Source: Nitrospinota bacterium
GTDB lineage: Bacteria; Nitrospinota; Nitrospinia; UBA9942
DNA length: 59,811 nucleotides
Reading direction: 5' to 3'
NCBI GenBank assembly: GCA_016194325.1
Contig: JACQBS010000026.1
Location: 1 to 59,811, forward strand
Below, piece after piece: positions 26,918 through 38,049 of the stretch. The position numbers were made by a program, and so were the translations under genes. The notes beneath the pieces were generated by a model. That model had not been told where the DNA came from. It saw nothing but the letters and a program-made list of their open reading frames with translations, and did not search any database. Position 1 is the first letter of the stretch; every line of letters starts with the position of its first letter.

Positions 26918-29143
26918 ATGAAAATTACAAATCAGGAAATATTAAAATTTATGCGGGAGTCTGTTTATCGTCCCCTTACAATGAAGGAATTGATAAAGAG
27001 TTTTAATATCCCTTCAGAGGAGAGAAGCTCCTTCAGGAGATTAATCAGGGGGCTGACAGGTGATGGAGAGATTATAAAGATAAAGGGAAATAGATTTGGA
27101 CTCCCCGAAAAGATGAATCTTGTTACAGGTGTTGTGCAGGGGCATCCTGACGGTTATGGATTTGTTATCCCTGAAGCCTGTAGTGACCCTGATCGGAGCG
27201 AAGGGGAATCTAACAGAGGAGAAGACCTATTTATAAATCCAAGAAATATGAGAGAGGTAATGCACGGTGATAAAGTTATCTGCAGGGCTGAACCAGCCCA
27301 AAAAGGCGGGAAGAGAGAGGGGAGGATTGTAAGAATATTAGAGAGAGGGCATAAGACATTAGTCGGTATATACGAGCCGAGTGGTCATTTTGGCTTTGTG
27401 ATACCTGATGACAGGAGGATAAGCCATGATATTTACATACCGCTTAAATATAGCGGAAAGGCTAAGATGGGGCATGCAGTCATAACAGAGATTACAGCCT
27501 ATCCAATGAAAAACAGAAACCCTGAAGGCAGGATAATAGAGATTATCGGTTATCCCGATAACCCCGATGTAGAGATAGATATTGTTCTGAGAAAATATGA
27601 TATACCCTCAAAATTTCCAATAGATGTTTTAAAAGAGGCAGATGCCGTTCAAAAAGAGGTTACAGATGATGAAATTATAGGAAGACTGGATTTAAGAGAT
27701 AAAAATATAGTTACCATAGACGGAGAAAAGGCAAAGGATTTTGATGATGCTGTAAATGTTGAGAGGCTTAATAATGGCAATTATATGTTAGGGGTCCATA
27801 TTGCCGATGTGAGTCATTATGTGAAAGAGGAAAATAACCTTGATAATGAGGCAGTTAAGAGGGGAACGAGTGTATATTTTCCTGACAGGGTAATCCCTAT
27901 GCTCCCCTTTCAACTCTCCAATGAGATATGCAGTCTAAAGCCAAATGTAGACAGGCTGACTCTGAGTGCATTTATGGAGTTTGACATGCAGGGAGAACTG
28001 ATAAATTATAGTTTTGCAGAGACAGTTATAAACAGCAAAGAGAGGATGACCTATACAGATGTGGCAGCAATACTGGAAGAGGGGCAAGGGGCAAGCCTGC
28101 CCCTGCAAGTAGTAAGCAGGGGGGGCAAGGGGCAAGGAGAAAATAAGGATTTAAAAGAAAGATATTCTTATCTCCTGAATGATTTTTATTTAATGAGGGA
28201 ATTGTGCGAGGTTTTGAGAGAAAGAAGAGTGAAAAAGGGGAGTATAGATTTTGACCTCCCTGAGCCTGATATAATCCTTGACCTGATGGGCAAACCTGAA
28301 AATATAATAAAGGCTGAAAGGAATATTGCCCATAAAATCATTGAGGAATTTATGCTCGTGGCGAATGAAACTGTAGCAACACACTTTACAAAACTTGAAA
28401 TACCTGCTCTTTACAGGGTGCATGATGAACCTGACCCGGCAAAAATAATAGAACTGAGTGAATTTGTATCAAATTTTGGTTATCATTTAAAAATAGATTC
28501 CCGCCTTCGCGGGAACAAGTTTCATCCAAAGAGATTTCAGGAACTGCTAAATAGTATCAGGGGGAAACCTGAAGAGCTGCTTATATCTACAATAACCTTA
28601 AGGCACATGAAACAGGCAAGGTATTCACCTGAAAATATCGGTCACTTTGGCCTTGCCTTTGAGAACTATACCCACTTTACATCTCCAATAAGGAGATACC
28701 CTGACTTAATCGTCCACAGACTCTTAAAAGAAATAATAAAAAAGAAACATATTCCAAAAAAGAGATTAGACTTATGGAAGGAGAAACTCCCTGAGATTGC
28801 CCGACACTCTTCAGAGAGAGAAAGGACGGCAGATGCGGCAGAAAATGATATTGTTGAATTAAAGAGGGTCCAGTTCATGGTGGATAAGATTGGTGAAGAG
28901 TATGAAGGGATTATATCAGGCGTAACCTCTTTTGGATTGTTTGTGGAACTGGAGGAGATATTTGTTGAAGGGCTTATCCATGTATCGGGTATGGCTGATG
29001 ATTACTATGCCTTAAATGAGAGAGACCATTCACTGACAGGAAGACGGACAAAGAAAAGATTCAAGATGGGAGATAGGGTAAAGGTAAAGATTGAAAATGT
29101 CAGTCTGGCAAAAAAACAGATTGATTTTAAATTGATTAAATGA
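26918..29143 (+). CDS. rnr: Ribonuclease R
   Basis: HTH plus cold-shock domains, RNB 'TIDGEKAKDFDDA', 'HFTSPIRRYPDL', C-terminal S1; start moved to ATG 26918. Confidence 0.97.
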   Translation: MKITNQEILKFMRESVYRPLTMKELIKSFNIPSEERSSFRRLIRGLTGDGEIIKIKGNRFGLPEKMNLVTGVVQGHPDGYGFVIPEACSDPDRSEGESNRGEDLFINPRNMREVMHGDKVICRAEPAQKGGKREGRIVRILERGHKTLVGIYEPSGHFGFVIPDDRRISHDIYIPLKYSGKAKMGHAVITEITAYPMKNRNPEGRIIEIIGYPDNPDVEIDIVLRKYDIPSKFPIDVLKEADAVQKEVTDDEIIGRLDLRDKNIVTIDGEKAKDFDDAVNVERLNNGNYMLGVHIADVSHYVKEENNLDNEAVKRGTSVYFPDRVIPMLPFQLSNEICSLKPNVDRLTLSAFMEFDMQGELINYSFAETVINSKERMTYTDVAAILEEGQGASLPLQVVSRGGKGQGENKDLKERYSYLLNDFYLMRELCEVLRERRVKKGSIDFDLPEPDIILDLMGKPENIIKAERNIAHKIIEEFMLVANETVATHFTKLEIPALYRVHDEPDPAKIIELSEFVSNFGYHLKIDSRLRGNKFHPKRFQELLNSIRGKPEELLISTITLRHMKQARYSPENIGHFGLAFENYTHFTSPIRRYPDLIVHRLLKEIIKKKHIPKKRLDLWKEKLPEIARHSSERERTADAAENDIVELKRVQFMVDKIGEEYEGIISGVTSFGLFVELEEIFVEGLIHVSGMADDYYALNERDHSLTGRRTKKRFKMGDRVKVKIENVSLAKKQIDFKLIK

Positions 29144-31022
29144 ACCCTTTTGTTATCTTTATCCTCCCTGTATCCTCAGCCGTCTTTTTTGTATTTTCAA
29201 TCCACTGCTGGTAAGTATAATTTTGTTTTTCTGTCAGCAGTCTGTTTGTAAATTCCTTTTCCTCTTCCTGAAATTTCTTTTCATCAATTCCCAATCTATC
29301 CTTGATATATACCAGAAAATAATTATCGTTCAGCTTGACCTTATTATAATCACCCTTTTTTGTATTAAAAACTGTCTGCACCAGATTTTCATCTCTCCCG
29401 ATGCTTGATGCTATCGTATTCCTTGTAACATATCCTGTAGTCCCCTTCATAGCCTTTAGTTCATCAGCTGCCTTCTTAAACTCCTTCCCCTTTTTCAAAT
29501 CTTCAAGAATCTTGCCTGCCTCAAGGTCAACGATTTTTTTTGCCTCCTCATCCCTATATGCCTTCTCCACCTCTCCCTTTATCTCTTCAAATTTAGGTAT
29601 GAATGCATCCTTTTTCTCTTTATATCTTAATATATAAAATTTTCCGCCATCCTCTAAAATCTCACTTACATCTCCCTTCTTTAATGCAAACGCAGCCTTA
29701 CTTAAGATAGGGTGTTCTCTATCATCTTTTTTAAAACCGCCTCCAGAAGCAGTAACATATTGTTTTCCTTTTATAACAGTATTAAAATCAGCACTCTTTA
29801 AATCTGTACCCTTTCTTATGCCGTCAAGTTCAGTCTTTGCAATATTTTTTGCGTCACCCTCTTTCAAAATCTTTACAATATCATCTCTTACCTCTGACAG
29901 TCCTTTTGTCCTCTCATCTTCAATCTTCTCAACCTTTATTATGTGGTAGCCGAACGGAGTCCTGACAGGCTCGCTCAGTTCCCCCTCTTTTAAGGCGAAT
30001 GCGGCGTCCTCAAATTGTTTTACCATCTGTCCCTTTGAAAAGAAGCCAAGGTCTCCACCTTTACCCTTATTGGGGTCATCAGAATATTTCTTTGCCAGTT
30101 CAGCAAAATCCCCGCCCCCCTTCAATTCCTGCAAGACCTTTACTGCCTTTGCCCGCCCCTCAACTTCTACCTTCTCATCTGCCTCAGGTGAAACAGCAAT
30201 GAGTATATGCATTGCCTTCACTCTCTTCGGAATTTTATATTCATTTATATGCCTGTTATAATATTCATTTACCCTGTTGTCCTCTATTTTAATATTAGCC
30301 TCAAAACCCTTTGAGTCTGCCGAGACATATTCAACAACCATCTCCTCCCCTCTTTGAAAAAGGGATTTATTATTATTATAAAATTCTTCTATTTTGTCTG
30401 GAGCAAATGTTACCCTGTTTATAAAATTGGAAGGGCTCAATATAAGATAGTCAACATCCACCTTTTCATTTGCACGGGCATAGGCATCCTTCACCTCTTT
30501 TTTTGAAATCTTCACACCATCCTTAATCAGATTTTCTATCTTTTTTATCAGGAGGTCTTCCCTCACCGCATCTTCAAAACCGCCTGGGTTCATCCTGTTT
30601 GTCTGAAGTATTCTTATATATAAATCCTTATCAAACCTGCCATCCTTTTTAAATACATCCATCCCCTGAATTTCATCAATAACCTCTTCATCTATTACAA
30701 CCAGACCCTCCTTTTTAGCAATGGATAACTGCAGCTTTCTTGTTATAAGGGAATCTATTGCAGCCTTTTTTACAATAGGGGCGAACAGTTCTTCATTCAA
30801 ATTCCCCTGCTGTTTCTTATAAAAATCTAATATCCTCTTATAAAATTCCTGATATTCAGTGTATATTATTTTCTTGCCGTCAACTGTGGCAACAACGGCT
30901 GCCGATGTCTCCTTCCCCATACCCCATACTAAAAACATCGTGCCGACAAATGATGCAACCACTGTCCACAGCATAATTTTTATAAACCACGATTTTGCAT
31001 AATCTCTCATGAACTGAAGCAT
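29136..31022 (-). CDS. ppiD: PpiD/SurA-type periplasmic peptidyl-prolyl isomerase chaperone
   Basis: 'MLQFMRDYAKSW' N-terminal anchor, SurA-N domain, parvulin 'HILI...FAELAKKYSDD...GGDLGFF...PFGYHII'. Confidence 0.85.
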   Translation of the reverse strand: MLQFMRDYAKSWFIKIMLWTVVASFVGTMFLVWGMGKETSAAVVATVDGKKIIYTEYQEFYKRILDFYKKQQGNLNEELFAPIVKKAAIDSLITRKLQLSIAKKEGLVVIDEEVIDEIQGMDVFKKDGRFDKDLYIRILQTNRMNPGGFEDAVREDLLIKKIENLIKDGVKISKKEVKDAYARANEKVDVDYLILSPSNFINRVTFAPDKIEEFYNNNKSLFQRGEEMVVEYVSADSKGFEANIKIEDNRVNEYYNRHINEYKIPKRVKAMHILIAVSPEADEKVEVEGRAKAVKVLQELKGGGDFAELAKKYSDDPNKGKGGDLGFFSKGQMVKQFEDAAFALKEGELSEPVRTPFGYHIIKVEKIEDERTKGLSEVRDDIVKILKEGDAKNIAKTELDGIRKGTDLKSADFNTVIKGKQYVTASGGGFKKDDREHPILSKAAFALKKGDVSEILEDGGKFYILRYKEKKDAFIPKFEEIKGEVEKAYRDEEAKKIVDLEAGKILEDLKKGKEFKKAADELKAMKGTTGYVTRNTIASSIGRDENLVQTVFNTKKGDYNKVKLNDNYFLVYIKDRLGIDEKKFQEEEKEFTNRLLTEKQNYTYQQWIENTKKTAEDTGRIKITKGFI

Positions 31023-31045
31023 CTATTAACCTCCAAAAAAAAATC

Positions 31046-31119
31046 AGCCACGAATGAATACGAATTAACACTAAATTATATGGTAAATCATCGTATCTGA
31101 TTCGTGTAAATTCGTGGCT
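31046..31119. repeat. CACGAAT-family inverted-repeat element
   Basis: AGCCACGAAT ... ATTCGTGGCT, perfect 10-bp ends. Confidence 0.85.
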
Positions 31120-31138
31120 AATAAGTTTCTGTTTTGAC

Positions 31139-32434
31139 TTATAATGCTACATCAAACCCGACTGTAATCTTACTCCCATCTATACTCTTCTGTTCACCGC
31201 CGACGGTGTATTTGTCTTTATATTTATTATCCTGAAAATCCCACAGGGATTTAAAAGTTATCCGTGCATTCTGGGTGACATACCATGCGCCCTCAACTGC
31301 AAAATCAGCGTTTTTATTTGAATCTGTCCCGCCATCTTTTTCTGTGAGTGTCTCATAAATTGCACCGAATTGAAAAGATTCACTAAGGCGTAAAAGCCCC
31401 TCCATCATAAAACCGGTTGATTCCCTTTTTGTCCCGATTCCTGTTGATGAAACATCGCTCTGGGATACGGTGTCATAAAGAAAATCTAAGTCAAATCTCT
31501 GTGATGAATACCTGATACCCGCCACCCATTCTCCCACATCATTCCTGTATTTTCTATTACCTGTTGTCCCTCCAAATCCCTGAGGATTGGCGAAGTATCT
31601 GACAGAGGCAGCAACTGCCCCAAAATCCCCCCTCAACATCCCTGTATAGGCGGTGTTTGGGTCATTATCATTATCGGCACTTCCGCCATTACCCTGATTT
31701 ACGGCGAGCTCATAGGTAAAATAACCAAACCCGGGACGTCCGTAAAGACTAATTCCAAGGTCATTACTGCCTGCCCTGCCTGTATTGTATCCTGAGCTTG
31801 CCGAAGGATTGTTTCCGCTGCTCCAGTTCATAGGCATCGGGATAAGAGACTTGCCGCTTATAACCCGCCTTGTGCTGTGGACAGCATCAAGGTCAGAACT
31901 CATAAGCGAGCCAAATCTGATATTAAAATTACCAGGGCCCCATATATTATGAAAACCTAAAAACATTGAGTCGGTTATGCGGCCTGTAATCTTATCCTGC
32001 GATGACCCTTGAGGAAGTTCAAACCAGTAAGAAACATTTTTTGTAAGTGTCCCCCCTCCAATAATATTGCCAGCCATTTCACCGGATGAGAGCAGCCCCC
32101 CCGCCTGTTCATTCTCACCAGCAGTTGTATGTGTTGTCCTGCTTAAATAGGTTCTGCCCTCTAATCTCAGGCTAAACGGCGGGAATGTAGCAGGGTTATC
32201 CAATGGTAGGTCTTCGGCAATCTTTATCTTGCCTGCCTCTCCCCCGCTTTCTGTATCAGGCAGTTGATAGCCATTGAGCATATAATTAAATCCAAACTCA
32301 TTCAGCCTTGGCCAAGTGGAATGGCAGAGCATACAGGCGATCTCATGTTTTCTAGCAAACCCCGGTTGCGCATCTGCAGGTTTATATGCCACCGCAATAA
32401 ATGATATACCGATGAAAATAATTAATAAAAGCAT
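31139..32434 (-). CDS. Cyc2-like fused monoheme cytochrome c / outer-membrane beta-barrel
   Basis: Signal peptide, then 'PGFARKHEIACMLCHSTWPRLNEFG...NGY' (single CxxCH) and alternating beta-strand patterns. Start is uncertain (32434 or 32491) because repeats overlap it. Confidence 0.7.
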   Translation of the reverse strand: MLLLIIFIGISFIAVAYKPADAQPGFARKHEIACMLCHSTWPRLNEFGFNYMLNGYQLPDTESGGEAGKIKIAEDLPLDNPATFPPFSLRLEGRTYLSRTTHTTAGENEQAGGLLSSGEMAGNIIGGGTLTKNVSYWFELPQGSSQDKITGRITDSMFLGFHNIWGPGNFNIRFGSLMSSDLDAVHSTRRVISGKSLIPMPMNWSSGNNPSASSGYNTGRAGSNDLGISLYGRPGFGYFTYELAVNQGNGGSADNDNDPNTAYTGMLRGDFGAVAASVRYFANPQGFGGTTGNRKYRNDVGEWVAGIRYSSQRFDLDFLYDTVSQSDVSSTGIGTKRESTGFMMEGLLRLSESFQFGAIYETLTEKDGGTDSNKNADFAVEGAWYVTQNARITFKSLWDFQDNKYKDKYTVGGEQKSIDGSKITVGFDVAL

Positions 32435-32491
32435 CCTGAGCTTGTCGAAGGATGCATGGTTCGACTTTTCGACAAGCTCAAAGCTCACCAT
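32432..32491. repeat. CCTGAGCTTGTCGAAGG / TTCGACAAGCTCA-family hairpin repeats
   Basis: CATCCTGAGCTTGTCGAAGGATG followed by TGGTTCGACTTTTCGACAAGCTCAAAGCTCACCAT. Confidence 0.8.
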
Positions 32492-32513
32492 GCTTGCCTT
32501 CGGGCTTACCACT

Positions 32514-32792
32514 TTACTTTCTCGACTTTGAGTATTCAATCAATTTCTCCCATTCGCCATTAATTAAAGCCTCTTTCTTCTTTCTTGTCCATCCTTTTAT
32601 TTGCCTTTCCCTGAGAAATGCGTCATGAATTGTTGGCATTTCACAATAATAAACCAATTTTACAGGCAATCTCTTTGCTGTATAGCCATCAAACATTTTA
32701 GTGTTATGTTCAGCTAATCGTTTTTCTAAATTTTTAGCAGAGCCAGTATAGTATGACCCGTCAGCACATTTCAATATGTATAACCATGTCAT
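32514..32792 (-). CDS. GIY-YIG nuclease (YhbQ/UPF0213-like)
   Basis: 'WLYILKCADGSYYTGS...RLAEHN...YT..RLPVKLVY...RERQIKGWTRKKKEALI'; start moved to ATG 32792. Confidence 0.92.
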   Translation of the reverse strand: MTWLYILKCADGSYYTGSAKNLEKRLAEHNTKMFDGYTAKRLPVKLVYYCEMPTIHDAFLRERQIKGWTRKKKEALINGEWEKLIEYSKSRK

Positions 32793-32800
32793 TATTATTG

Positions 32801-32823
32801 CATCCTGAGCTTGTCGAAGGATC
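32801..32823. repeat. CCTGAGCTTGTCGAAGG-family repeat upstream of the GIY-YIG gene
   Basis: CATCCTGAGCTTGTCGAAGGATC, matching the copy at 32432. Confidence 0.8.
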
Positions 32824-33685
32824 ACTCCTTCTCCATATTCATCTCAAGTTCTGTTTTTTGTCCTTTCCTTATAGATACCTTTTCCTTTTTCTCCTTAAAG
32901 CTCTCAAGCTTTACAGTTACATCATATATACCTGATTCAATATCAACACTCAGCGGCGATAGTCCAAAGTATATGTCGCCAATATATATCTTGGAGCGGG
33001 GAGGCTCTGTCTTTATGGAAATTCTCCCTGCCCCTTCAGGAATTGGTGTTTCTTCTGCAGATGCAGTCCCTGCCTTTCCAAAATTTTTATTTATCTCTAT
33101 AATTGTTTTATTAATAACCTTTGCAAGTGTCTTTGAGATATATGAATTGATTGTCTTCTTGGAATTACCAGAGACCCCTGCAAACCTATCTTCTTTTTCT
33201 GTTATTACACCCTCCCATATGCCCTTCCCTGTTTTACCTGATATTAACCTGCTTTCAATCTCAATTTCTATTTCGTCTCTTCCCTTTATATCAAGCCTGA
33301 ATTTTTTTATCTCCCCGCTCATTATTATATCCGCCTGACCTCCCCCCTCTCCTCCTTCTAAAGGAGGGGATGAAGGGATGGTAACAATAAAACCGGCAGA
33401 AGTTAGATGTGTCTTAATAGCTTCATTAACAGATATAGCAACATCCTTTTCCAAAATAATTTTATCGGCATGCATATCAGTAACAGTTGACTCAATTTTT
33501 CCAACATAGTTTGGGGCGACATCTCCCCTTGAATCAATATATGGTTTAAGGATGATGGTTAGGGGTTTAGTGGCTTTTGATGTATCAGGGATTTGTCCGG
33601 GCTTATAGTTAAGCTTAACCGCCCCTGAACAGCCTGTTATAAATAGGAATAGTAAGAAAGGAAGGGAATAGCGGGTTATTGTCAT
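32822..33685 (-). CDS. Lipoprotein with a C-terminal PEGA domain
   Basis: Lipobox 'ITGC'; C-terminal 'ISIKTEPPRSKIYIGDIYFGLSPL...GIYDVTVKLESF' PEGA pattern. Confidence 0.8.
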   Translation of the reverse strand: MTITRYSLPFLLFLFITGCSGAVKLNYKPGQIPDTSKATKPLTIILKPYIDSRGDVAPNYVGKIESTVTDMHADKIILEKDVAISVNEAIKTHLTSAGFIVTIPSSPPLEGGEGGGQADIIMSGEIKKFRLDIKGRDEIEIEIESRLISGKTGKGIWEGVITEKEDRFAGVSGNSKKTINSYISKTLAKVINKTIIEINKNFGKAGTASAEETPIPEGAGRISIKTEPPRSKIYIGDIYFGLSPLSVDIESGIYDVTVKLESFKEKKEKVSIRKGQKTELEMNMEKE

Positions 33686-34059
33686 TTTATCTTCTCAATA
33701 AATGATCCTGCTGATTTAAGGGCTGCCTTTACCATATCTACATCCTCTAACAATCCTCTATAGTATCCAGCTATATGCAATTCCTTATAGAGGGCTTCAA
33801 AATTTCTAATAATCTTGCCGTTATGAACCGACAGATGTTTCTTTAGCATCTCTCTGTAACCATCTATGGATTTAGGTAATTTTTTTTCACCTACTCCTCG
33901 TTTTATGAGATATTCATCTATGGCTATCAACACAGAAAGATAGGCAGTAGAACAAGCCTCACGGACAAACTTAATATCTCTGTACCTATTCTCCTCAATT
34001 CCTGACTTACTCAGGATTTCTTTTGCATTTTCCAAATATCTTAAAGCCTCTTTTGACAT
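33682..34059 (-). CDS. DUF5618-like (HEPN-fold) small protein
   Basis: 'EALRYLENAKEIL...TAYLSVLIAIDEYL...LHIAGYYRG'; clear paralog of 35686-36090. Confidence 0.7.
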   Translation of the reverse strand: MSKEALRYLENAKEILSKSGIEENRYRDIKFVREACSTAYLSVLIAIDEYLIKRGVGEKKLPKSIDGYREMLKKHLSVHNGKIIRNFEALYKELHIAGYYRGLLEDVDMVKAALKSAGSFIEKIK

Positions 34060-34094
34060 AGTCAAATAATACACCAGATTTTTACTTTTTCAAA

Positions 34095-34135
34095 ATAAAA
34101 AAAGGGGAGGGTTTTAAACCCTCCCCTTTTTATTT
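34095..34135. terminator. Rho-independent terminator downstream of cyc2
   Basis: AAAAAAAGGGGAGGG-TTTTAAA-CCCTCCCCTTTTT: GC stem with T-runs on both strands. Confidence 0.85.
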
Positions 34136-34149
34136 GCTTCACCATTAAG

Positions 34150-34185
34150 CATGGTGAGCTTTGAGCTTATCTAAAAGTCAAACCA
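34150..34185. repeat. Degenerate TGGTTCGAC...AAGCTCACCATG repeat copy
   Basis: CATGGTGAGCTTTGAGCTTATCTAAAAGTCAAACCA is the reverse complement of the 32457-32492 copy with a few mismatches. Confidence 0.75.
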
Positions 34186-35409
34186 TTAGAATGCGGAGAA
34201 GACCATCAGTGTTGTTTTCTGGTCAGAACCATATGCTGTCTTCTGGTTTACATCGCCGCTCATTGTTGCATAATCTAACTGCACCTTAACATTCTGGGCT
34301 ATCTTATATATAAGGGCAATATCCATGCGGTTTTCACCGGCACTGGATGCAGCTCCATTTTTACCCATAAGATAACTCAATGCTACAGATGCCTTGTTCG
34401 GAATAATACCAAGATTTGCAGCTATAGATGTTGCATTTTTGTCTGCACCAGATGCTGCGATGGCATATGTCTTACCATCGGTCCCTGCCTTAGGTACTGT
34501 CGCATAGGTCAGATAGACTCCCAGAGGCATACCACCAATCTCACCTTGTGCCTGTGCATCAATGGCAGTTCCCTGAACTACATAAGTTGCAGAAGTTGCT
34601 TCACCCAATTTTGTCTCACCGCCCCAATACTGAACACCTATTGCTGTATCAAAGCCGCCAAGATTAGGTGTTACTGCTGCACGGATATACTGTGCGAGAT
34701 TGAGACCCGAAGAAATCGCATCGGAATGACTTGGACCCCATAGTGAGGCATTTACAAAGAACATATCACTGGCGCCATAGAGAACAATACCTGTGGCTGC
34801 AGTACCGCTAAGACCCGTATACTGCTGTGCTGAGGTATCTATACCTTCACCAATAGGTTTATGTATCTTTATTGCACCTGTGTTTAAAACCTCAAACCCA
34901 TAGCCCGCTCCCTGATCTGCTGTTGTAAAAGCACCTGCTGCCAGAGTGGTCCCGCCCATATCAAATGGGAATATTAATTTAAAATTATCAAAACCTCCAG
35001 TCTCCTTTAAGCCTCTCTCAAGTAAAAATCCAACATGCTCTCCACCACGACCCCCAGCCATTAATGATGCCTCATCAGGAACCTGTATTTGACCCCTGTC
35101 TGTCCCGGCCTTAGTATCACCATTTGTCTGCTGGTACCTTGCTTTAACTATAAGAGACATATTAAGGACATTTGGAATTGATAAGTCATCATCCTTAATC
35201 TGGCCCTGCTCGCCAATCTGTGTATAACCGCTTGCCTTAAATGCCCTGCCAAAAGAATTTAAGCTTGGAAAAGCCTGGAAATGGCATGTATTACAGGCAT
35301 GACCTGTCTGCCTTGAAAATGCTGGAATTGCCTGTGCATCCTGCGTAATTATAAATGAACCTACGAAGGATAAGGCTACTGCTAATGTTATTACTAATAT
35401 CTTCTTCAT
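34186..35409 (-). CDS. cyc2: Cyc2 cytochrome-porin fusion, Cluster 1-like (putative outer-membrane Fe(II) oxidase)
   Basis: Signal peptide ending AQA; 'IPAFSRQTGHACNTCHFQAFPSLNSFGRAFKASGY'; 'PDEASLMAGGRGGEHVGFLLE'; beta-barrel ending in Phe. Confidence 0.85.
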   Translation of the reverse strand: MKKILVITLAVALSFVGSFIITQDAQAIPAFSRQTGHACNTCHFQAFPSLNSFGRAFKASGYTQIGEQGQIKDDDLSIPNVLNMSLIVKARYQQTNGDTKAGTDRGQIQVPDEASLMAGGRGGEHVGFLLERGLKETGGFDNFKLIFPFDMGGTTLAAGAFTTADQGAGYGFEVLNTGAIKIHKPIGEGIDTSAQQYTGLSGTAATGIVLYGASDMFFVNASLWGPSHSDAISSGLNLAQYIRAAVTPNLGGFDTAIGVQYWGGETKLGEATSATYVVQGTAIDAQAQGEIGGMPLGVYLTYATVPKAGTDGKTYAIAASGADKNATSIAANLGIIPNKASVALSYLMGKNGAASSAGENRMDIALIYKIAQNVKVQLDYATMSGDVNQKTAYGSDQKTTLMVFSAF

Positions 35410-35531
35410 CTTTTACCTCCTCAAATTTAAAAACTAAAAAAATATAAACTCCATTACTTATGTGTAAAATCCTAAAAACCTACTTACCACCACCTCCTTT
35501 CTTATTTAAAAATTTACTGTGTACTTAATTT

Positions 35532-35631
35532 AGATTCTTCCCCTTCCCCTTCACTTTGTTCAGGGTCAGGGTCAGAATGACACTTCTGCTATTGCTTGTC
35601 ATTCTGAAGGAGCAAAGCGACTGAAGAATCT
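35532..35631. repeat. GTCATTCTG...GAAGAATCT-family palindromic element with a nested CCCTTCACTTTGTTCAGGG unit
   Basis: Ends AGATTCTTC/GAAGAATCT; inner CAGAATGAC/GTCATTCTG. Confidence 0.75.
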
Positions 35632-35685
35632 CAACATTAAATTATGTGAATAAATATCATACCCTCTTTACTTTGTCAAGGTTTT

Positions 35686-36090
35686 TTAATGTTCAATCTT
35701 CTCAATAAATATCCTTGCAGCTTTTATGGCATCTTTCACCATATCTACATTATAGATAAGCCCTCTATAATATCCTGCTATATGCAGGGTATCATAAAGC
35801 ATTTCAAATTCTCTCATAAGTTTTCCATTGCGAATTGCCAGATGCCTTTTCAATGCCTCTCTATAGGCATCTACCGATCCTTCGGCTTCGCTCAGGACAG
35901 GTTTAGGAAGTTCTTTTTTTATTAAGCCATGTTTAGTAATAAGGTACTCGTTTATTGCTTCTAAAATAGCAAGATAGGCTGTCCCAAAAGCCTCTCTTAC
36001 TGGCTTTACATCTGTATAGACATTTTCCTCTATAGGGATTTTTTTGAGTATCTCCTTTGCATTGTTTAAATATCTAATAGATTCCCTCAT
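35686..36090 (-). CDS. DUF5618-like small protein (second paralog, with an 8-aa repeat-derived insert)
   Basis: 'ESIRYLNNAKEIL...LHIAGYYRG'; carries PVLSEAEG, which the 33682 paralog lacks. Confidence 0.7.
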   Translation of the reverse strand: MRESIRYLNNAKEILKKIPIEENVYTDVKPVREAFGTAYLAILEAINEYLITKHGLIKKELPKPVLSEAEGSVDAYREALKRHLAIRNGKLMREFEMLYDTLHIAGYYRGLIYNVDMVKDAIKAARIFIEKIEH

Positions 36091-36187
36091 AGGGTTTAAG
36101 TGGGCTTTGGGGATTTTTAAACTGCCTCAAATTATATCAAGGCAGAGAGATATGTCAAGAGAAAAATTAAAAAGAAAAACCTAATCA

Positions 36188-36267
36188 AACCACAGATTCA
36201 CACAGATTAACACGAATTTAAAAAGAAAAAAGTTTTTATCTGTGTTCATCCGTGTTTATCTGTGGTT
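36188..36267. repeat. CACAGAT-family inverted-repeat element
   Basis: AACCACAGAT ... ATCTGTGGTT, perfect 10-bp ends. Confidence 0.85.
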
Positions 36268-36276
36268 GCTTTTATT

Positions 36277-38049
36277 TTAGGGGGTATCAAGCCTGATACT
36301 CAGTTCCTTCAACTGTCTCTTTTCTACATCCGATGGGGCGTCGGTCATAAGACAGATTGCCTTCTGGGTCTTTGGGAATGCAATTACATCCCTTATGGAT
36401 TTTGACTTTGTAAGGATTGCCATCAATCTGTCCAAGCCAAATGCAATCCCGCCATGGGGCGGTGTCCCATATTCAAGTGCCTCAAGCAGAAACCCGAACT
36501 TTGCCTTTGCCTCATCATCTGTCATGCCAAGTGTATCAAACATCTGCTTCTGAACCTCCTGCTTAAATATCCTTATACTCCCACCGCCAATCTCCGAGCC
36601 ATTCAGAACCAAATCATAAGCCTTTGCCCTCATTTTCTTGGGGTCAGTTTTAAATAATGATAAATCCTCATCCACAGGTGATGTAAATGGATGGTGCATT
36701 GCAACCCATCTCTTTTCTTCCTCATCCCAATCCAATAATGGGAAATCCGTTACCCATAGGAAATTGAATTTATTTTCATCTATTAATTTGAGCCTCTCAG
36801 CCAGTTTTAAACGAAGGTGTGATAGTGAATCAAAAACAACCTTCGGCTTATCTGCAACAAATAGTAGCAAGTCTCCAGATACCCCTTCCATTACTTGGAC
36901 AATTTCATCAAGAACCTCTTTTTTGAAAAACTTGGCTATTGGAGATTGAACCCCCTCAGAAGTAATCTTTAACCATGCAAGCCCCTTTGCACCAAAGATA
37001 CCTGCCTCTGCTGTCAAATCATCCAAATCCTTTCTTGAAAACTCAGCACACCCTTTAGCATTAATTCCTCTAACCGTTCCGCCATTTTTTATAGCCTCAG
37101 TAAAGACTTTAAAATCAGATTTAGATGCAGAAGAAGTTATATCTTTTAGCTCAAGTTCAAACCTCGTATCAGGTTTATCACTTCCGAATCTATCCATAAC
37201 CTCATGGTAGCTTAAAACAGGAAAGGTCCTTTCTATTTCAACACCTATAGATTTTTTAAATACCTCGGAGAGCATCTCTTCAATCAGAGGGAATATATCC
37301 TCCCTGTCTATAAAGGAGAGCTCCATATCTATCTGTGTAAATTCAGGCTGTCTATCTGCCCTTAAGTCTTCATCTCTGAAACATTTAACTACCTGAAAAT
37401 ATCTTTCATATCCTGCCACCATCAGAATTTGCTTAAAAAGTTGTGGGGATTGTGGGAGTGCATAAAACTTACCGGGGTTTAATCTACTCGGGACAAGATA
37501 ATCCCTTGCCCCTTCAGGCGTGCTTTTTGTCAAGAATGGCGTCTCTATCTCAAGAAAACCTCTGTTATCAAGGAAGTCACGAACAGTCTTTGCAACCTTA
37601 TGCCTTAAGATGATATTGCTTTTTAAAGAAGGTCTCCTTAAATCAAGGTATCTGTATTTTAGCCTCAGCATCTCGGACACCTCCTCACCATCTTCTACGA
37701 AAAATGGCAGTGGCTTGGACTCATTCAGAATCTCCAAATCTTCAACAGTAATTTCAATCTCTCCTGTCAGAAGTTTCGGATTGACAGTCCCTTCAGGTCT
37801 TGCAATAACCTTCCCCTTGATTGCCAGCACATATTCACTCCTTATTTCATGTGCCTTCTTATGTGCAATCTTATCAATCTCAGGATTTACCACCACCTGT
37901 GTAATCCCATCCCTGTCCCTTAAATCTATAAAGATTAATCCGCCGTGGTCCCTTCTCTTATGCACCCAGCCCATAAGTATTACAGTGTTGCCAGCATTAC
38001 TGCCCCTCAATTCACCACAGGTATGTGTTCTTTTAAATTTTTCAGCCAT
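36277..38049 (-). CDS. aspS: Aspartyl-tRNA synthetase (probably non-discriminating Asp/Asn)
   Basis: 'RTHTCGEL', 'PQSPQLFKQ', '[16 protein letters not shown]', '[12 protein letters not shown]'. 'RRDHGG' and 'RPEG' match the ND-type residues. Confidence 0.97.

Follow-up and report, generated by a model that had tools for sequence, protein, structure and literature searches.

The stretch of DNA analysed here (the window) comprises 59,811 nucleotides (nt) of contig JACQBS010000026.1 from a groundwater Nitrospinota bacterium. It carries two divergent genes encoding Cyc2-type cytochrome-porins, cyc2A (the first copy) and cyc2B (the second copy), which lie about 1.7 kb apart in one locus, together with a gene encoding a PEGA-domain lipoprotein. 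We found that the lipoprotein gene belongs to cyc2A and not to cyc2B, and that the locus is a juxtaposition of two units, in which a widespread cassette of cyc2A, a hairpin and the lipoprotein gene stands beside a resident pair of cyc2B and ppiD. Judged by its conservation across genomes, the lipoprotein is apparently a widely conserved, undescribed partner of cyc2A. It is this Cyc2-lipoprotein module that is new; two divergent copies in one genome and the idea that they serve different conditions have already been published, and the cyc2 genes, taken by themselves, add ordinary new members to a known family. All genes of the window are given on the minus strand unless stated otherwise, and the central features are the following.

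34186..35409, minus strand: cyc2A, a Cluster-1-like Cyc2 fused monohaem cytochrome-porin of 407 amino acids (aa) with a C-terminal Phe
34099..34131, minus strand: an intrinsic-terminator-like hairpin, AAAAAGGGGAGGG..CCCTCCCCTTTTT, 3' of cyc2A
32822..33685, minus strand: the PEGA lipoprotein, a candidate Cyc2 partner (PEGA E 1.6e-12, lipobox ITGC)
31139..32491, minus strand: cyc2B, a divergent Cyc2-family cytochrome-porin with a C-terminal Leu, of 431 aa (from ATG 32434) or 450 aa (from ATG 32491)

The surroundings of cyc2A-type genes were compared in 80 loci from different species of several phyla, 75 of which had enough flanking sequence to be informative. The lipoprotein family was the most conserved neighbour of cyc2, being present in 43 of the 80 loci against 15 for the next family. 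Among the 75 informative loci, the 43 linked genes were distributed as 34 directly downstream on the same strand, seven near downstream and two upstream. The seven near cases were betaproteobacterial operons with the order cyc2, dihaem cytochrome c4, a second c4, monohaem cytochrome c (c5) and then the lipoprotein, and because these operons end with the lipoprotein gene, it is tied to the cytochrome operon. In L054, L055, L064, L072, L073 and L078, cyc2 was accompanied by one or two dihaem c4 genes, in some loci with a monohaem c gene, and the PEGA lipoprotein gene came last.

For the reciprocal test, metagenome contigs were scanned with the lipoprotein alignment and 80 loci were kept. A cyc2A-type match was found in 41 of them, directly upstream on the same strand in 40 and downstream on the opposite strand in the remaining one. 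Fifteen loci had too little upstream flank, and 24 more distant relatives had the flank and no cyc2; most of these 24 lie in a housekeeping context (ProS, RppH, CBS protein, lipoprotein, dut, coaBC). The distant lipoprotein branch seen in L144-L172 keeps the motif DRFAGVSGN and stands in the string ProS, RppH, CBS, lipoprotein, dut, coaBC, radC with no adjacent cyc2.

The co-occurrence of lipoprotein and cyc2 across genomes, which the initial annotation had named as a check, was also found. Among 251 genomes drawn evenly from one betaproteobacterial order (the one holding Sideroxyarcus), the lipoprotein was present in 10 and a full-length cyc2A-type gene in 15. All 10 fell within the 15, and none of the other 236 genomes carried the lipoprotein (Fisher p = 1.3e-14, uncorrected for shared ancestry). 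In five of the 10 the lipoprotein and the cyc2A-type gene lay on different contigs, so the association outlasts the loss of linkage. The lipoprotein was absent from 11 genomes that had N-terminal Cyc2-motif matches only (other Cyc2 types), and three of six Gallionellaceae-type genomes without an adjacent lipoprotein carried the gene elsewhere, Gallionella and Sideroxyarcus-type genomes being among those with an unlinked copy. Within Nitrospinota, the full-length lipoprotein is restricted to the family of the present genome.

The lipoprotein had been proposed beforehand as a candidate accessory standing between the two copies. With linkage to cyc2 elsewhere as strong as this (43/75; 40/41; 10/10), it is a strong candidate. 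Its partner is the cyc2A type, downstream of which it lies directly in several phyla, and it does not travel with cyc2B: a cyc2B relative of 68% identity keeps PpiD downstream and has no cyc2A or PEGA gene upstream. In the literature searched, no paper linking the PEGA domain with Cyc2 or with iron oxidation was found, and a 2026 protein-focused review of iron oxidation mentions no lipoprotein.

The lipoprotein consists of an N-domain, a variable linker and a C-terminal PEGA domain. The PEGA model (PF08308) matched residues 220-286 with 47.6 bits against a gathering cut-off of 20.8, and it matched all 35 family members. The lipobox reads LFITG-C-SG, C19 is invariant in 35 of 35 sequences, and across the family Ser, Ala, Thr or Gly, never Asp, occupies position +2. 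The sorting rule that lipoproteins with no Asp at +2 go to the outer membrane comes from E. coli and, extended to this phylum, would place the protein in the outer membrane. In the family alignment (A3, 35 sequences) C19, D51, R53, D137, R167, G170 and G173 were invariant, and the alpha/beta N-domain has the conserved motifs D-x-R, F-x-L-D-I-x-x-R-D-E and D-R-F-A-G-V-x-G-N-S-R. The protein is regarded as not being a redox carrier, since it has a single Cys and no haem or cluster motif. The N-domain gave recurrent sub-threshold matches to YajG/Lipoprotein_16 (11 of 35, best E 5e-5), LpoB (8), GNA1162-like (5) and LptE (2), with further weak matches to DUF4136, ABC_trans_aux and CsgG, and four of six PDB profile matches were PelC-type lipoproteins (E 0.29-1.6). 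These families are small outer-membrane lipoproteins, two of which act on beta-barrels, LptE together with LptD and PelC together with PelB. An LpoB/YajG/LptE-like N-domain, and by analogy a role like that of LptE or PelC, is therefore a suggestive possibility.

In the hairpin at 34099-34131, a T-run comes after a perfect 16-bp palindrome. A terminator-like hairpin within about 20-30 nt 3' of cyc2 was found in 25 of the 34 loci with a directly adjacent lipoprotein. The strict GGGAGGG/CCCTCCC-T pattern was present in 16 of these 34 loci. Of 32 loci that lack the lipoprotein, 1 had it, as did 23 of 5492 background windows. Scanning 30900-36400 against Rfam returned sub-threshold generic hairpins only and no RNA family for the post-cyc2 hairpin. 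The pattern fits strong cyc2 transcription with the lipoprotein gene reached by read-through, and it also fits the horizontal spread of the whole cassette. In the first 160 nt after cyc2 (L002-L081), the stem GGGGAGGG/CCCTCCCC with its T-run is near-identical across phyla and nearly confined to loci where the lipoprotein gene comes next; terminators are not usually conserved to this degree at the level of primary sequence.

Keffer et al. (2021; PMC8406198) described Cyc2 by a signal peptide, one CXXCH with AXPXFAR[Q/K][T/Y] just upstream of it and PXL four residues downstream, a length of at least 365 aa and a 16-strand porin. On their motifs and predicted folds, cyc2A and cyc2B are both Cyc2-type cytochrome-porins, of different lineages. 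The motif of cyc2A is AIPAFSRQTGHACNTCH-FQAF-PSL...GY and that of cyc2B is AQPGFARKHEIACMLCH-STW-PRL...GY; each protein has one CXXCH (residue 39 in cyc2A, residue 34 in cyc2B) and two Cys in total. The spacing from signature to CXXCH equals that of Gallionella-type relatives, and the PXL spacing of cyc2A is four (CH-FQAF-PSL). By inspection, the signal peptide of cyc2A is MKKILVITLAVALSFVGSFIITQDAQA/IP, and in that of cyc2B the hydrophobic core LLLIIFIGISFIAVA leads into ADA/QP, while the n-region is rebuilt from repeat sequence. Both lengths (407 and 431 aa) exceed 365 aa.

The AlphaFold2 model of cyc2A (predicted local distance difference test score, pLDDT, 82.6; predicted template modelling score, pTM, 0.82) has 16 long strands by DSSP, and the low-confidence model of cyc2B (pLDDT 56, pTM 0.58) also has 16. 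Foldseek matched both models to 16-strand general porins (OmpF, OmpT, PorB, OprP/OprO) with E from 1e-10 to 1e-12, and the matches of cyc2A included OprP 2o4v and OprO 4rjw; OprP/OprO are the structural relatives reported for Cyc2PV-1 (PMC8406198). The initial annotation had described the second protein as a signal peptide, a CxxCH signature and a beta-barrel, and the motifs, the AlphaFold2 model and Foldseek all agree with this. Its reservation that this protein might not be a barrel is answered by the 16 modelled strands and the porin fold matches. No Pfam or NCBIfam model matched cyc2A or cyc2B, and a PDB sequence search gave weak MauG haem-motif matches for cyc2A and none for cyc2B.

The barrel of the second protein had also been described as unlike that of the first, and we confirmed that the likeness of the two copies is confined to about the first 140 residues. 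BLASTP aligned them over 84 N-terminal columns alone (33% identity, residues 1-80 of cyc2B), and hhalign of the two families gave 141 columns at 99.2% probability and nothing beyond. Relatives of cyc2A number in the hundreds. On contigs from one genome per species, its full-length identity to Gallionella, Gallionellaceae and Sideroxyarcus proteins is 40-46%, and the closest cyc2A loci come from groundwater Nitrospinota, 'Deltaproteobacteria'/Thermodesulfobacteriota, Desulfuromonadales and Nitrospirota. A word-indexed search found 15 relatives of cyc2B. The cyc2B family profile (A1) matched 4471 representative proteins at E <= 1e-3, many over the whole barrel, which places cyc2B in the same large superfamily.

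In a tree of 195 sequences, cyc2A fell in an 80-row clade with all 79 locus Cyc2s (100% support), which takes in the Gallionella, Gallionellaceae and Sideroxyarcus sequences. A separate 18-row clade (99% support) held cyc2B, and its named members are Nitrospinota and Nitrospiria sequences, all labelled 'hypothetical protein'. The term Cluster-1-like for cyc2A is based on its grouping with Gallionellaceae-type sequences and not on a FeGenie hidden Markov model (HMM) assignment. Within Nitrospinota, 45 of 120 genomes had a Cyc2-like match. Close cyc2B orthologues were found in seven of the eight genomes of the present genome's family, and at least five genomes of the family keep the pair of both copies. 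On a Nitrospinota HZB29 contig (L082/L083), a distant cyc2B relative of 32% identity stands divergently beside three FlgO-type lipoprotein genes, a gene for a 200-aa PEGA protein and a CsgG-like gene, so that here too a cytochrome-porin is paired with envelope lipoproteins.

The reading that we favour, and hold to be rather probable, is a two-unit locus in which a cyc2A-lipoprotein cassette, with the lipoprotein as a structural partner of Cyc2A, lies next to a resident cyc2B. The first unit, found in many phyla, would comprise the Cluster-1-like cyc2A, a G-rich terminator or attenuator hairpin and the gene of a non-redox outer-membrane lipoprotein with an LpoB/YajG/LptE-like domain followed by a PEGA beta-sandwich. 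The second would be cyc2B, a Cyc2 paralogue of Nitrospinota type whose resident site in this family is upstream of ppiD. With similar confidence we regard the two as outer-membrane electron-transfer units of different origin. Each Cyc2 is predicted to combine a monohaem cytochrome c and a 16-strand porin in one fused protein. From homology to the Cyc2 of Mariprofundus PV-1, we infer oxidation of dissolved Fe(II) at the cell surface and a flow of electrons through Cyc2 to periplasmic cytochromes and a terminal oxidase.

With its lipid anchor presumably in the outer membrane's inner leaflet, the lipoprotein would dock on, cap or help to assemble the Cyc2A barrel, much as LptE serves LptD and PelC serves PelB. 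Owing to the hairpin, it would be expressed at a much lower level than cyc2. Considering its non-redox nature, its lipid anchor, the fold hints and the genetics, a structural partner, cap or assembly factor is the most likely role of the lipoprotein and our best guess.

Cluster 1 Cyc2 (Mariprofundus ferrooxydans Cyc2PV-1 and Gallionellaceae; PMC8406198, PMC7029218) shares with cyc2A the signal peptide, the single CXXCH in its signature, the length of about 400 aa and a 16-strand porin resembling OprO/OprP, in addition to the identity with Gallionellaceae-type sequences given above. The differences of cyc2A are its Nitrospinota host, FSR for FAR, and the conserved hairpin and PEGA lipoprotein gene that follow it, which are unmentioned in the Cyc2 literature searched. 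McAllister et al. (PMC7029218) reported Zetaproteobacteria with both Cluster 1 and Cluster 3 cyc2 and proposed that the variants are optimised for different conditions. Those genomes likewise hold two very divergent paralogues each, for which a hypothesis of condition-specific variants exists. In the window, however, the copies lie together in one locus, and cyc2B belongs to a small Nitrospinota/Nitrospiria clade with KH/KY after FAR and PXL one residue nearer the haem motif. Since two-copy genomes have been published and cyc2 in Nitrospinota is already in several metagenomic papers, the pair in itself adds a new example to a known kind.

LptD-LptE and PelB-PelC also have a barrel gene genetically tied to a small alpha/beta outer-membrane lipoprotein of the LptE/LpoB/PelC-like type. 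Here, however, the matches to these lipoproteins are sub-threshold, an extra PEGA domain stands at the C-terminus and the pairing with the barrel is known from the genes alone; the cargo is lipopolysaccharide or polysaccharide in those systems and, by homology, would be electrons in this one. In MtrCAB, MtoAB and PioAB, similarly, electrons cross the outer membrane by way of a barrel that acts together with lipoproteins or periplasmic proteins. There the partners are multihaem cytochromes, whereas in the present case the haem-binding part is fused to the barrel and the lipoprotein is devoid of redox motifs.

Among marker genes for neutrophilic microbial iron oxidation, cyc2 is the principal one. 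Its product is treated as a fused cytochrome-porin that needs no partner, and producing it in E. coli is difficult. A partner lipoprotein, if true, would alter the modelling of the conduit and the heterologous expression of Cyc2, and would serve as an additional marker by which cyc2 homologues of uncertain function could be divided into subclasses. The Cyc2-lipoprotein module is worth an experiment; the cyc2 genes alone belong to a known family, and metagenomic work had already recorded cyc2 in this phylum.

Several observations weigh against parts of the favoured reading. Compared with the strict pattern PXFAR[Q/K][T/Y], cyc2A and cyc2B each miss by one residue, the former with AIPAFSRQT (Ser for Ala) and the latter with AQPGFARKH (His for Thr/Tyr), and the PXL spacing of cyc2B is three (CH-STW-PRL), a value found in 15 of the 16 sequences of its family alignment. 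We read these deviations as lineage traits, because the cyc2A family has the consensus AVPAFARQT, which matches the pattern exactly, and in the cyc2B family PAFARKH or PAFARKY goes together with the shorter spacing. Confidence in the cyc2B model is low, the fold of the lipoprotein N-domain is assigned from sub-threshold matches (PDB E 0.3-1.6; Pfam mostly > 1e-3), and the Fisher value leaves shared ancestry uncorrected. Moreover, 32 of the 75 informative cyc2 loci (most Gallionellaceae, all Thiodiazotropha) have no such adjacent lipoprotein and five of the 15 cyc2-positive genomes of the order sample are without it altogether, so that it is not universally required. Finally, the genome has multihaem cytochrome open reading frames (ORFs) with 36, 26, 20, 15 and 11 CXXCH (on contigs C110, C174, C69, C13 and C79), and many cyc2A relatives come from Thermodesulfobacteriota-type genomes. 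For these two reasons aerobic Fe(II) oxidation is not assured.

A second type of lipoprotein, shorter and with an N-terminal PEGA-like and a C-terminal SHOCT domain, was found near cyc2 and dihaem c4 in 12 further loci, from Thiodiazotropha, tubeworm symbionts, Thiobacillus and other Gammaproteobacteria and Betaproteobacteria. Its PEGA domain was above the Pfam cut-off in two of three tested. Loci listed for this type are L032, L036, L039, L042, L052, L058, L065, L067, L070, L071 and L074.

More tentatively, Cluster-1-type Cyc2 in many bacteria might be one half of a two-protein outer-membrane complex, with the PEGA lipoprotein as an obligate subunit whose stoichiometry is limited by the attenuator. 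In such a complex the lipoprotein would cap, plug or assemble the haem-porin, or dock the periplasmic electron acceptor. If true, the complex would supply a missing component for the model of neutrophilic iron oxidation and a marker of a functional cyc2 subclass.

A division of labour between the copies is possible to about the same limited degree. As the initial annotation suggested, each copy would be adapted to its own redox potential, Fe(II) species or oxygen regime and would be used under its own conditions; the same has been proposed for the Cluster 1 and Cluster 3 copies of Zetaproteobacteria (PMC7029218). The retention of the pair in at least five genomes of the family agrees with this, and so do the barrels, which are unrelated in sequence, and the haem surroundings, which differ (KH against QT; PXL spacing of three against four). 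However, the sequence holds no measure of potential or regulation, and since cyc2B occurs without cyc2A in a relative, the pairing of the two copies is not obligate.

It is somewhat less likely that the two Cyc2s are not aerobic Fe(II) oxidases. They would instead export electrons to minerals or to partner cells, draw them from solids, or oxidise Fe(II) in an anaerobic, nitrate-linked way, and the lipoprotein would then belong to that alternative conduit. The multihaem cytochromes, which suggest an extensive extracellular electron-transfer capacity, favour this, as does a third cytochrome-porin inside a multihaem cluster. The closest loci with cyc2A and lipoprotein are also mostly from groundwater Thermodesulfobacteriota/'Deltaproteobacteria', Desulfuromonadales and Nitrospirota, which are not classical iron oxidisers, and the Cyc2 papers caution that function is uncertain outside well-supported iron-oxidiser clades. 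On the other hand, cyc2A groups with Gallionellaceae-type sequences, haem-copper oxidase genes are present in the genome, and a monohaem porin is predicted to act on dissolved Fe2+ rather than on solids (PMC8406198). Because of the multihaem cytochromes, the third porin and the fact that most close cyc2A relatives are from lineages not known as aerobic iron oxidisers, direction and substrate are presumptive.

The third, more divergent cytochrome-porin lies at 7300-8571 of contig C79. It has 423 aa, carries AISAWARKYGVDCSVCH, ends in ..VQYMF and matched the cyc2B-family HMM at 9.6e-21. It is flanked by ORFs with 11, 9 and 1 CXXCH, and the region may be a separate porin-cytochrome cluster. A search with the strict motif P.F.R[QKRH]...C..CH had indicated two cytochrome-porins in the genome; the CXXCH census overturned this count, as the third protein has SAWARKY. 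With the copy on C79, the genes of the window are not the sole cytochrome-porins of the genome.

The start of cyc2B was described in the initial annotation as overlapped by repeats, and its C-terminus as ending in Leu. Both statements hold for the present sequence, and the features concerned are these.

32514..32825, minus strand: a GIY-YIG nuclease gene (Pfam E 2.4e-17)
32427..32453, no strand assigned: the downstream copy of the repeat that flanks GIY-YIG, covering the cyc2B ATG at 32434
31787..31810, minus strand: a 24-nt repeat-derived in-frame insert in cyc2B (NPSASSGY, residues 209-216)

Direct repeats of 27 nt bracket the GIY-YIG gene (32796-32822 and 32427-32453). Native cyc2B starts read MNKLRL.. 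in the sister genus (G113) and MNSRIT.. in a same-genus genome (G119), and here the repeat encodes FDKLRM instead. The start is likely to be either ATG 32434, which has no spaced Shine-Dalgarno sequence, or ATG 32491, which has GAAGG 5 nt upstream and from which the new n-region again reads ..DKLR. The insert at 31787-31810 is a third copy of the repeat (D1); it adds eight residues relative to all 15 homologues and lies in a long loop between strands 5 and 6, where pLDDT is below 50. The C-terminus reads ...GFDVAL, and because 13 of 16 cyc2B relatives end in Leu or Ile, the Leu end is a family trait and not a truncation.

The replaced native start, the lack of a spaced Shine-Dalgarno sequence at ATG 32434 and the in-frame loop insert might be taken to mean that cyc2B is decaying in this genome and that cyc2A alone is functional. 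We regard this as improbable. The reading frame runs uninterrupted for 431 residues, the hydrophobic core and ADA/QP cleavage site are preserved, ATG 32491 with GAAGG supplies a new n-region, and the protein is 95% identical to its same-genus orthologue.

Still less probable is that the lipoprotein is a hitch-hiker of unrelated envelope function in a mobile cyc2 cassette, its adjacency being due to co-transfer, for although the cassette with its near-identical GGGGAGGG hairpin in several phyla fits horizontal spread and the distant branch stands in a housekeeping context without adjacent cyc2, a pure hitch-hiker should lose the association once unlinked, and yet all 10 lipoprotein genomes have a cyc2A-type gene, five of them unlinked, none of the 236 genomes free of cyc2A carries the lipoprotein, and in Betaproteobacteria it closes a cyc2, c4, c4, c5 cytochrome operon.

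The remaining genes and elements around the two units are as follows.

36277-38049, minus strand: AspRS
35686-36090, minus strand: the first DUF5618 gene
35441..35468, minus strand: a match to a sigma-70-like promoter consensus 5' of cyc2A (TTTACA-16-TATATT, 10/12; a consensus match only)
34147..34186, no strand assigned: a 40-nt repeat copy running from the cyc2A stop codon towards the terminator (inverted repeat I1; partner at 32456-32495, 93% complementary)
33682..34074, minus strand: the second DUF5618 (HEPN-like) small gene (Pfam E 1e-37)
29136..31022, minus strand: a PpiD-like periplasmic chaperone (SurA_N_3 and rotamase)

The minus-strand order from 29.1 to 38.0 kb is AspRS, DUF5618, cyc2A, hairpin, DUF5618, PEGA lipoprotein, GIY-YIG, cyc2B and PpiD-like; ORF positions with Pfam and NCBIfam scans thus agree with the gene order proposed earlier, terminator included. 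The stop of the second DUF5618 gene overlaps the lipoprotein start (ATGA), and an RNase R gene on the plus strand is convergent with the PpiD-like end of the locus.

Candidate accessory roles of these neighbours were considered and dropped. A related 102-kb Nitrospinota contig (L081) has AspRS, cyc2A, an 86-aa ORF, the PEGA lipoprotein, cyc2B, PpiD and RNase R. Both DUF5618 and GIY-YIG are missing there, and the unrelated 86-aa ORF occupies the DUF5618 position. In the sister genus (G113) the PEGA gene is followed after 28 nt by cyc2B with no GIY-YIG at the site, and in G119 a YefM/YoeB-like pair takes the GIY-YIG position. No DUF5618 match was found among the first 84 loci examined. Since the gene at each position varies among relatives, DUF5618 and GIY-YIG were ruled out as Cyc2 accessories; they are lineage-specific inserts outside the module, and the GIY-YIG insert is present only in this genome.

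PpiD lies 3' of cyc2B in the genomes G119, G118, G113, G114 and G117 and in L081 and L184, and it adjoins cyc2 in none of the other 80 cyc2 loci. A role as a Cyc2 chaperone was rejected as unsupported, the adjacency being restricted to this family; it is lineage-specific synteny with cyc2B. Because the inserts vary among relatives and the cyc2B-ppiD pair occurs without cyc2A and the lipoprotein, the locus is a juxtaposition of the two units.

Small selfish genes have a hot spot in the gap between the lipoprotein and cyc2B (32435-32821; the same site in L086/G119 and L088/G113). Between cyc2A and the lipoprotein the content varies too, with DUF5618 here against the 86-aa ORF in L081. Long imperfect palindromes of CACGAAT/CACAGAT-type units (I2, I3) occupy the intergenic regions 31034-31131, after cyc2B, and 36188-36267, the latter upstream of DUF5618/AspRS.

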